Notes: generated from the letters alone by a model not told the origin. Positions 37,780-37,889 are shown, numbered from the stretch's first letter. The stretch: 64,000 bases of DNA from Escherichia coli (GCF_003334305.1 NZ_QOWS01000005.1), one strand, 5' to 3'. Translations and numbers: made by a program.

Positions 37780-37812
37780 AGGGAAAAAGGAGAAGACCAG
37801 ATTAAGAAAATC
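37780..37812 (-). terminator. Intrinsic terminator of the tRNA-Val operon
   Basis: Minus-strand RNA ACCAGAUU-UUCUU-AAUCUGGU followed by CUUCUCCUUUUUCCC; the stem includes the tRNA 3' CCA. Confidence 0.55.
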
Positions 37813-37889
37813 TGGTGCGTCCGAGTGGACTCGAACCACCGACCCCCACCATGTCAAGGTGGTGCTCTAACCAACTGAGCTACGGACGC
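37813..37889 (-). tRNA. valW: tRNA-Val (anticodon GAC), downstream copy
   Basis: Minus strand reads GCGTCCGTAGCTCAGTTGGTTAGAGCACCACCTTGACATGGTGGGGGTCGGTGGTTCGAGTCCACTCGGACGCACCA; 77 nt with encoded CCA. Confidence 0.95.

Follow-up and report, generated by a model that had tools for sequence, protein, structure and literature searches.

Several E. coli tRNA operons (leuU, lysV/lysQ, proK, pheU, and asnV) end in Rho-independent terminators whose stem-loop follows the last tRNA and inhibits RNase P until it is removed (PMC2241853, PMC4176162). In K-12, the stems of these terminators begin 6–17 nt past the CCA, have a high G+C content (trailer folds of −13 to −24 kcal/mol), and lead straight into a U-run; an A/U-rich single-stranded linker sets them off from the tRNA, and their removal is endonucleolytic, by RNase E or RNase P. 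For mRNAs, Dar & Sorek 2018 described a Rho-type architecture in which a stem-loop without a U-tract is followed directly on its 3′ side by sequence with more C than G, termination is bicyclomycin sensitive and occurs later, and trimming by PNPase and RNase II leaves transcripts whose 3′ ends lie stably at the stem-loop in steady state; such sites can drift from one termination mode to the other (PMC6061677). The 3′ end of a tRNA precursor is also read by RNase P itself: its RCCA pairs with G292-G293-U294 in the P15 loop of RNase P RNA, and this pairing is essential in vivo. When leader bases pair with the RCCA, formation of the active enzyme-substrate complex (the ES to ES* step) is inhibited, which makes such pairing a measured anti-determinant (Zhu et al. 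2022, PMC9433436), and in the known cases 1–3 leader nucleotides pair with the RCCA and lengthen the acceptor stem (PMC9433436).

Here, we describe a hairpin at the 3′ end of the valV-valW operon that combines these known kinds, i.e., terminator or trailer stem-loops and RCCA-pairing anti-determinants. In contrast to the K-12 terminators, it starts at A73 inside the tRNA, is weak, has no adjacent U-tract, and is removed by PNPase and RNase II. With the sites of Dar & Sorek, it shares the stem-loop without a U-tract, the C-over-G sequence directly 3′ of it, and the trimming by PNPase and RNase II, and termination is probably likewise later and bicyclomycin sensitive (PMC6061677); unlike in those mRNAs, however, a tRNA's functional CCA end serves as its 5′ arm, no steady-state end is seen at the stem-loop, and its removal is needed for a functional tRNA. 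With the leader anti-determinants, it shares the predicted withholding of N73, C74, and C75 from the P15 loop by pairing in cis (PMC9433436), but the candidate partner at valW lies in the 3′ trailer and would form a helix of 8–12 bp, modeled as a hairpin of its own that stacks on the acceptor stem. In the accessible literature, the 3′ region of this operon is called unstructured, and the hairpin has been overlooked there. Specifically, Mohanty & Kushner 2007 assigned the terminator to the Rho-dependent class and reported that ydhR is not cotranscribed, the Rho-dependent label being drawn from a supposed lack of downstream structure, without a Rho experiment (PMC2190699). This reasoning overlooks a hairpin that has its beginning within the tRNA.

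The operon lies on the minus strand of a 64,000-nt stretch of E. coli DNA (hereafter, the window), in the gene order ydhQ / valV valW / ydhR ydhS, and the positions of its features are collected in Table 1. As originally predicted, the two tRNA-Val(GAC) copies, which correspond to the two tRNA-Val2 species of E. coli, differ in the acceptor and T stems: 6 of 77 positions are different and form three compensated base pairs at 5:68 and 7:66 (acceptor stem) and 50:64 (T stem), which are U-A, A-U, and U-A in valV and C-G, G-C, and G-C in valW, respectively. At the other end of the transcript, a short stem-loop is predicted in the leader. Zhao & Harris 2019 is reportedly an in vitro study of valVW. 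Reviews credit that work with an inhibitory leader stem-loop of the operon, and the element modeled here is presumably the same one. Primer extension placed the start sites ~18–20 nt upstream of valV (PMC2190699). The 800 bases around the hairpin are 100% identical to strain 120899 and were found in 5,426 of 5,426 complete E. coli genomes, with the locus at least 99% identical in 5,145 of these; within-species variation is therefore uninformative.

Table 1. Features of the valV-valW operon and its trailer (positions counted from the first nucleotide of the window)
Feature	Positions	Strand	Basis
Sigma-70-type promoter of the valV-valW operon (TTGCCA, 17 nt, TAATAT)	37997..38025	(−)	Pattern scan
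5′ leader stem-loop GUUGU-CACCU-ACAAC, 5 bp	37974..37988	(−)	Predicted in primary-transcript fold
valV, tRNA-Val(GAC), upstream copy	37894..37970	(−)	ARAGORN, Rfam tRNA, RefSeq annotation
Inter-tRNA spacer UCCU, 4 nt	37890..37893	(−)	ARAGORN and sequence
valW, tRNA-Val(GAC), downstream copy	37813..37889	(−)	ARAGORN, RefSeq annotation
Hairpin 5′ arm ACCAGAUU (A73, C74, C75, A76, and four trailer bases, GAUU)	37809..37816	(−)	Folds
Hairpin loop UUCUU	37804..37808	(−)	Pattern scan and fold
Hairpin 3′ arm AAUCUGGU; its UGGU partners ACCA	37796..37803	(−)	Pattern scan and alignment
Pyrimidine-/C-rich, G-poor trailer CUUCUCCUUUUUCCCUCUGUUUCUUCUCUGUAUCC, candidate Rho loading (rut) region, includes the U5 run	37761..37795	(−)	Composition
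ydhR coding sequence, next same-strand gene, outside the element	37400..37705	(−)	Annotation

On the minus strand, positions 37816–37796 read ACCAGAUU-UUCUU-AAUCUGGU and form 8 contiguous pairs, 3 of them G-C, around a 5-nt loop. The prediction of a hairpin that uses the encoded 3′ end of the tRNA held: the 5′ arm opens with A73 and continues through C74, C75, and A76, i.e., the last four bases of valW (37816–37813), and the predicted interval of 37780–37816 covers both the hairpin and the U-containing tail that follows it, CUUCUCCUUUUUCCC (37795–37781). The hairpin by itself has a stability of −8.8 kcal/mol, and the 56-nt stretch folds at −12.3 kcal/mol (z = −3.9), with 0 of 200 shuffles as stable. 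Hairpins of 8 bp start at just 0.35% of the minus-strand positions in the window, and when the trailer was shuffled, a stem of at least 8 bp anchored at A73 arose in ~0.03% of trials. The hairpin is more than a product of chance. Folding of the primary transcript, which had been proposed as a check, placed the hairpin flush against the valW acceptor stem, with zero unpaired bases between the two helices, both in this fold and in that of valW plus trailer. N73, C74, and C75 are predicted to be paired in the minimum-free-energy and centroid folds with probabilities of 0.87–1.00 (0.87 for A73 and 1.00 for C74 in the ensemble); the folds are thermodynamic and ignore tRNA tertiary structure, modification, and co-transcriptional kinetics.

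Next, we explored the distribution of the hairpin among relatives. A single search for the tRNA-Val(GAC) 3′ end across GTDB species genomes yielded at least 120 loci, with Salmonella and Klebsiella lying outside the sample. Among the matches listed, 15 of the 98 terminal tRNA-Val(GAC) trailers carried a stem of 8–12 contiguous pairs anchored exactly at A73, compared with a shuffle expectation of <0.1% for an A73-anchored stem of at least 8 bp, and three further trailers, all from Citrobacter, carried an equivalent stem with one or two mismatches. Among these matches, all hairpin bearers but one belonged to Escherichia, Citrobacter, Enterobacter, Lelliottia, Kluyvera, or Pseudescherichia. The UGGU was invariant in 15 of 15 aligned species, and the outer ACCA/UGGU was fixed, as required, while the inner stem varied (GAUU/AAUC, UAUCA/UGAUG, UUUCA/UGAAA, and AAUCA/UGAUU), and the loops of the relatives were 3–9 nt long and rich in pyrimidines. 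In the 15-species alignment, 94.5% of the cells were paired versus 27–42% with slid partners. Both sides had changed at three pairs, and the covariation score was matched by 0 of 500 shuffles; the rows were picked for possessing the hairpin, though they form one coherent clade. G-U pairs outnumbered A-C mismatches 5 to 1, which favors selection on the tRNA-sense RNA over selection on DNA or antisense RNA. On the evidence of these alignments, the hairpin is under selection.

The hairpin also goes together with the spacing of the two tRNAs. Among the matches listed, the inter-tRNA spacer measured 3–4 nt in 14 of 16 hairpin-bearing relatives versus 3 of 37 others; when loci were chosen independently, by their 3–4-nt spacer, 14 of 17 had the stem, again among the matches listed. 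The hairpin was kept with or without ydhR downstream. In every member outside Escherichia (Citrobacter, Enterobacter, Kluyvera, Lelliottia, and Pseudescherichia), the 3′ arm is UGGUGC, a 2-bp GC extension that Escherichia is without. In the predicted ensembles of these non-Escherichia relatives, C72 pairs with the trailer with P = 0.73–1.0 and the probability of G1-C72 falls to 0–0.26. Since C72 is captured by the UGGUGC arm, the prediction is that the trailer of these relatives opens the site at which RNase P cleaves.

Within K-12, we scored the trailers of 36 terminal tRNA genes and found that only valW has a compact stem anchored at N73/CCA, with 8 pairs compared with ≤4 in the others. About two thirds of these terminal tRNAs are followed by the G+C-rich terminator 6–17 nt past the CCA with its immediate U-run, and the trailers of a smaller share are unstructured. 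The survey thereby ruled out the idea that CCA-overlapping stems are routine in E. coli. Two of the surveyed genes, leuU (L141) and metV (L137), have an ACCA that can pair with a UGGU located 3′ of a canonical terminator, and in the predicted fold this pairing (ACCAAA…UUUGGU in leuU) forms a long-range helix that encloses the terminator; because the UGGU in both cases lies beyond the termination point, this pairing is probably irrelevant.

Several loci elsewhere in the scan merit mention. In Enterobacter asburiae, two tRNA-Val(GAC) loci occur in one genome (L097 and L096), and the CCA-anchored hairpin is present at only one of them, while the acceptor sequence of the hairpin-less locus is a variant one and its spacer is 4 nt long. 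A Hyphomonadaceae MAG (L073:5844–5871) contains an unrelated alphaproteobacterial tRNA with a matching 3′ end, followed by an A73-anchored hairpin of 12 bp (ACCAAAUUUUGC-AAAG-GCAAAAUUUGGU) and then by UUAUUUAUC, which looks like an independent instance of a CCA-containing terminator-like stem. In Rheinheimera riviphila and Rheinheimera sp. SA_1 (L034, L035, and L071), ACCAA…UUGGU follows tRNA-Val(GAC) and can form 5 bp with an 8-nt loop; the remaining Rheinheimera loci listed have canonical G+C-rich terminators 15–20 nt past the CCA.

The hairpin had originally been taken for the intrinsic terminator of the operon, and in this respect the prediction, in the form given, found no support. For the valW hairpin and its tail (CUUCUCCUUUUU), the d'Aubenton-Carafa score is d = −46.7 (threshold, ~0) with a tail score nT of 1.64. 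In comparison, the canonical tRNA-Val terminators of Rheinheimera and Photobacterium score +30 to +36 and the ydhR terminator scores +1.9. With 8 bp, 3 G-C pairs, and the stability given above, the stem is at the weak end relative to the −13 to −24 kcal/mol of K-12 tRNA terminator trailers. The first 8 nt past the stem are CUUCUCCU instead of the ~7–8-nt U-tract that an intrinsic terminator has there, and the only candidate, a U5 run at 37784–37788, is separated from the stem by 7 nt, i.e., it occupies positions 8–12 past the stem. Nor is a U-tract conserved together with the stem in orthologues: among the matches listed, the stem is kept in 15–18 species and the tail is U-rich in only ~4 of 15. 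The U5 run is 10 nt off the stem in E. albertii and missing in a divergent Escherichia (L122), and the tail reads AAAUUUCC in five Enterobacter/Lelliottia genomes that retain the stem. Among the matches listed, a proper U-tract occurs only in P. vulneris, C. werkmanii, and one C. youngae locus, where it adjoins the stem only when two further G-C pairs are counted into the stem (extended-stem d of +18 in P. vulneris and +11 in C. werkmanii). Most of this evidence speaks against the valW hairpin being a stand-alone intrinsic terminator in E. coli. As for the broader proposal that termination is coupled to the tRNA 3′ end, the link between that end and a downstream structure is real, as the covariation and the uniqueness of the stem in K-12 attest, and the label of terminator is the doubtful part.

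The curated Term-seq 3′ ends of Adams et al. 2021 cover three conditions and include none at 1746593–1746700, a range that contains CCA +24 to +31. The ends reported there are the mature valV CCA, a weak end at the ydhR start codon that appears in one condition (MG1655 1746701, corresponding to ~37704 in the window), and the ydhR terminator. Because no steady-state end is found at the hairpin, the hairpin does not act as a lasting exonuclease barrier; such an absence is to be expected, since the tRNA must be matured.

These data bear on the reading that the hairpin is a leaky intrinsic terminator, perhaps aided by NusA, at which substantial release occurs ~7–14 nt past the stem and Rho stops the remainder. 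We regard this as unlikely, although a number of observations fit it. The locus matches a permissive terminator-like pattern and its U5 run lies 8–12 nt past the stem; ydhR is reportedly not cotranscribed and the full-length precursor forms a discrete band (PMC2190699); P. vulneris, C. werkmanii, and one C. youngae locus have an 11–12-bp stem followed by UUUU(U), with d of +11 to +18; the alphaproteobacterial locus pairs its 12-bp CCA-anchored stem with a U-rich tail; and mixed or transition terminators were noted by Dar & Sorek (PMC6061677). The good U-tracts of P. vulneris and C. werkmanii suggest that termination may be an ancestral, perhaps still partial, function. However, the permissive pattern is expected ~0.9 times per 1.1 kb of shuffled sequence, the low d, weak stem, and CUUCUCCU tail speak against efficient release, and the U-run has shifted or disappeared in relatives that keep the stem. 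Moreover, no Term-seq peak is present at +24 to +31, where such release would place it. Together with the length of the precursor, described below, this argues indirectly against factor-independent release 7–9 nt past the stem, and the very high Rho score in the region, also described below, likewise speaks against a leaky intrinsic terminator.

The sequence downstream of the stem has a composition that would suit Rho loading. Its first 35 nt are 91% pyrimidine, the highest value of any 35-mer on the minus strand of the window, with C at 0.37 and G at 0.06, a C-minus-G difference at the 99.35th percentile, and 12 YC dinucleotides. Such C-rich, G-poor RNA 3′ of a stem-loop is what the Rho-type architecture calls for; the same composition is common to all Enterobacterales sampled, whether the hairpin is present or absent. 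The full-length precursor forms a discrete band that exceeds the trimmed dicistron by ~35 nt or more (PMC2190699), and because it is that much longer despite missing part of the 5′ leader, its 3′ end would lie beyond the U-run at +25 to +29; Northern-blot sizes are approximate. By this blot-based sizing, the precursor probably ends well downstream of the hairpin, an outcome at odds with the original prediction of a terminator. In the bicyclomycin data of Adams et al. 2021 (supplementary file 2), a Rho score of 87.4 is assigned to MG1655 1747130(+), which is among the highest and has a significance value too small to report; the localization is to an 800-nt upstream interval that holds valVW, but ydhR lies between. 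In the window, this coordinate corresponds to ~37275, just upstream of ydhS and past the ydhR intrinsic terminator.

A fold of valW with the whole spacer contains a further pairing (37706–37777, minus strand), in which the CU-rich trailer (UUUCUUCUCUG) is base-paired to CAGAAGGAGAA, the Shine-Dalgarno region of ydhR; the ydhR ribosome-binding site is accordingly predicted to be occluded in read-through RNA from the tRNA promoter. Insulation of ydhR as the selected function of the hairpin was rejected, as ydhR adjoins the operon only in Escherichia and the hairpin occurs in five other genera.

The reading that we prefer, tentatively and with somewhat less than even confidence, is that of a trailer hairpin that masks the CCA and precedes a Rho-dependent terminator; it would order the processing of the transcript, and this ordering would be what selection acts upon. 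The hairpin would form once ~21 nt past C72 have left the polymerase and, lying flush with the valW acceptor stem, would hold A73-C74-C75-A76 in a helix. Alone, it would fail to stop RNA polymerase efficiently in E. coli, and the polymerase would continue into the 35-nt C-rich, G-poor pyrimidine tract, on which Rho may load and terminate transcription within ~100 nt, before or at the ydhR start, which marks the zone by which termination must be complete. PNPase and RNase II would then trim the trailer back. Until this happens, the cis-encoded UGGU would occupy the RCCA needed by the P15 loop of RNase P, so cleavage at valW would be held back until the trailer is removed; in non-Escherichia relatives, the UGGUGC arm would additionally open G1-C72 and C2-G71 at the cleavage site. 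Since the spacer is only 4 nt, cleavage at valW would also free valV.

Published observations on the precursor are consistent with this order of events. A trailer-bearing precursor was detected only with both PNPase and RNase II inactivated (PMC2190699), which is the trimming expected of a Rho-type end, and it persisted despite active RNase P, leading the authors to suggest RNase P resistance (PMC2190699). Terminator hairpins on other operons inhibit RNase P (PMC2241853), and a spacer of 3–4 nt leaves RNase P as the sole enzyme able to separate valV from valW. Based on the modeled pairing, the hairpin probably delays RNase P; any such delay must be short, since processing of the precursor takes <30 s in the wild type (PMC2190699). 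A bolder extension, which we consider possible but rather doubtful, is that the trailer serves as a cis decoy of the P15-loop GGU, that 5′ maturation of valV-valW awaits both transcript release and trailer removal, and that this order or quality gate has co-evolved with the 3–4-nt spacer and with separation by RNase P only.

If the hairpin had no function in E. coli, it could be what is left of an ancestral intrinsic terminator in decay, or a quasi-palindrome that template-switch mutation maintains. Some lineages have a good U-tract and others a degraded one, which is the pattern expected of a terminator shifting to Rho, the 2-bp GC extension has been lost in Escherichia, and wild-type processing is very fast regardless (PMC2190699). 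We nonetheless consider this improbable, because the pairing has survived two-sided changes at three pairs, with G-U intermediates, across six genera in which loop and tail diverge freely, and a relic's pairing should have decayed at the pace of the U-tract. The invariance of the hairpin and its surroundings in >5,000 E. coli genomes also runs counter to decay but is uninformative on its own.

The possibility that the palindrome instead serves the opposite strand or the DNA, as part of the antisense RNA RF02194 (HPnc0260, an H. pylori transcriptome antisense RNA) or as a protein or integrase site, is very improbable. tRNA 3′ ends are common integration sites; the stem sequence varies while pairing is kept, however, which is not the behavior of a protein site. 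RF02194 matches the plus strand at 37689–37851 over its full length (model 1–156 of 156; 112.1 bits versus a gathering threshold of 59), in antisense orientation to the start of ydhR, to the trailer, and to the 3′ portion of valW. Its score comes chiefly from model positions 118–156, the complement of the tRNA T arm, though, and the model is without structure at the hairpin; a pattern scan at the locus found no promoter-like site on the plus strand, in published data from EHEC (E. coli O157:H7), 1 RNA-seq read and 0 footprints fall on the locus that Rfam annotates, and the excess of G-U over A-C noted above favors the sense RNA. We therefore rejected the HPnc0260 match as an artifact of its antisense-tRNA segment, and automatic Rfam annotation of enterobacterial genomes probably carries a doubtful HPnc0260 feature. 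A terminator for the opposite strand was likewise discarded, the plus-strand palindrome being followed by GCGUCCGAG, with no U-tract.

The hairpin is a detail of one operon and introduces no new principle, so its reach is limited. Still, valV-valW is the textbook case of a tRNA operon that depends on RNase P but not on RNase E, as well as the simplest model in which to follow how polycistronic tRNAs are processed directionally, and a conserved hairpin that begins inside the tRNA alters the picture of an unstructured 3′ region. It offers a concrete reason for the apparent RNase P resistance of the trailer-bearing precursor, as well as a reason why clearance of the trailer needs both PNPase and RNase II, and it implies that in vitro substrates with and without the natural trailer may behave differently. 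The contrast between the two loci within the E. asburiae genome is a natural experimental resource. More broadly, the clade is a natural series: behind one and the same stem, the U-tract is good, poor, or absent. Such a series can help in tracing how terminators drift from intrinsic to Rho-dependent termination and back.
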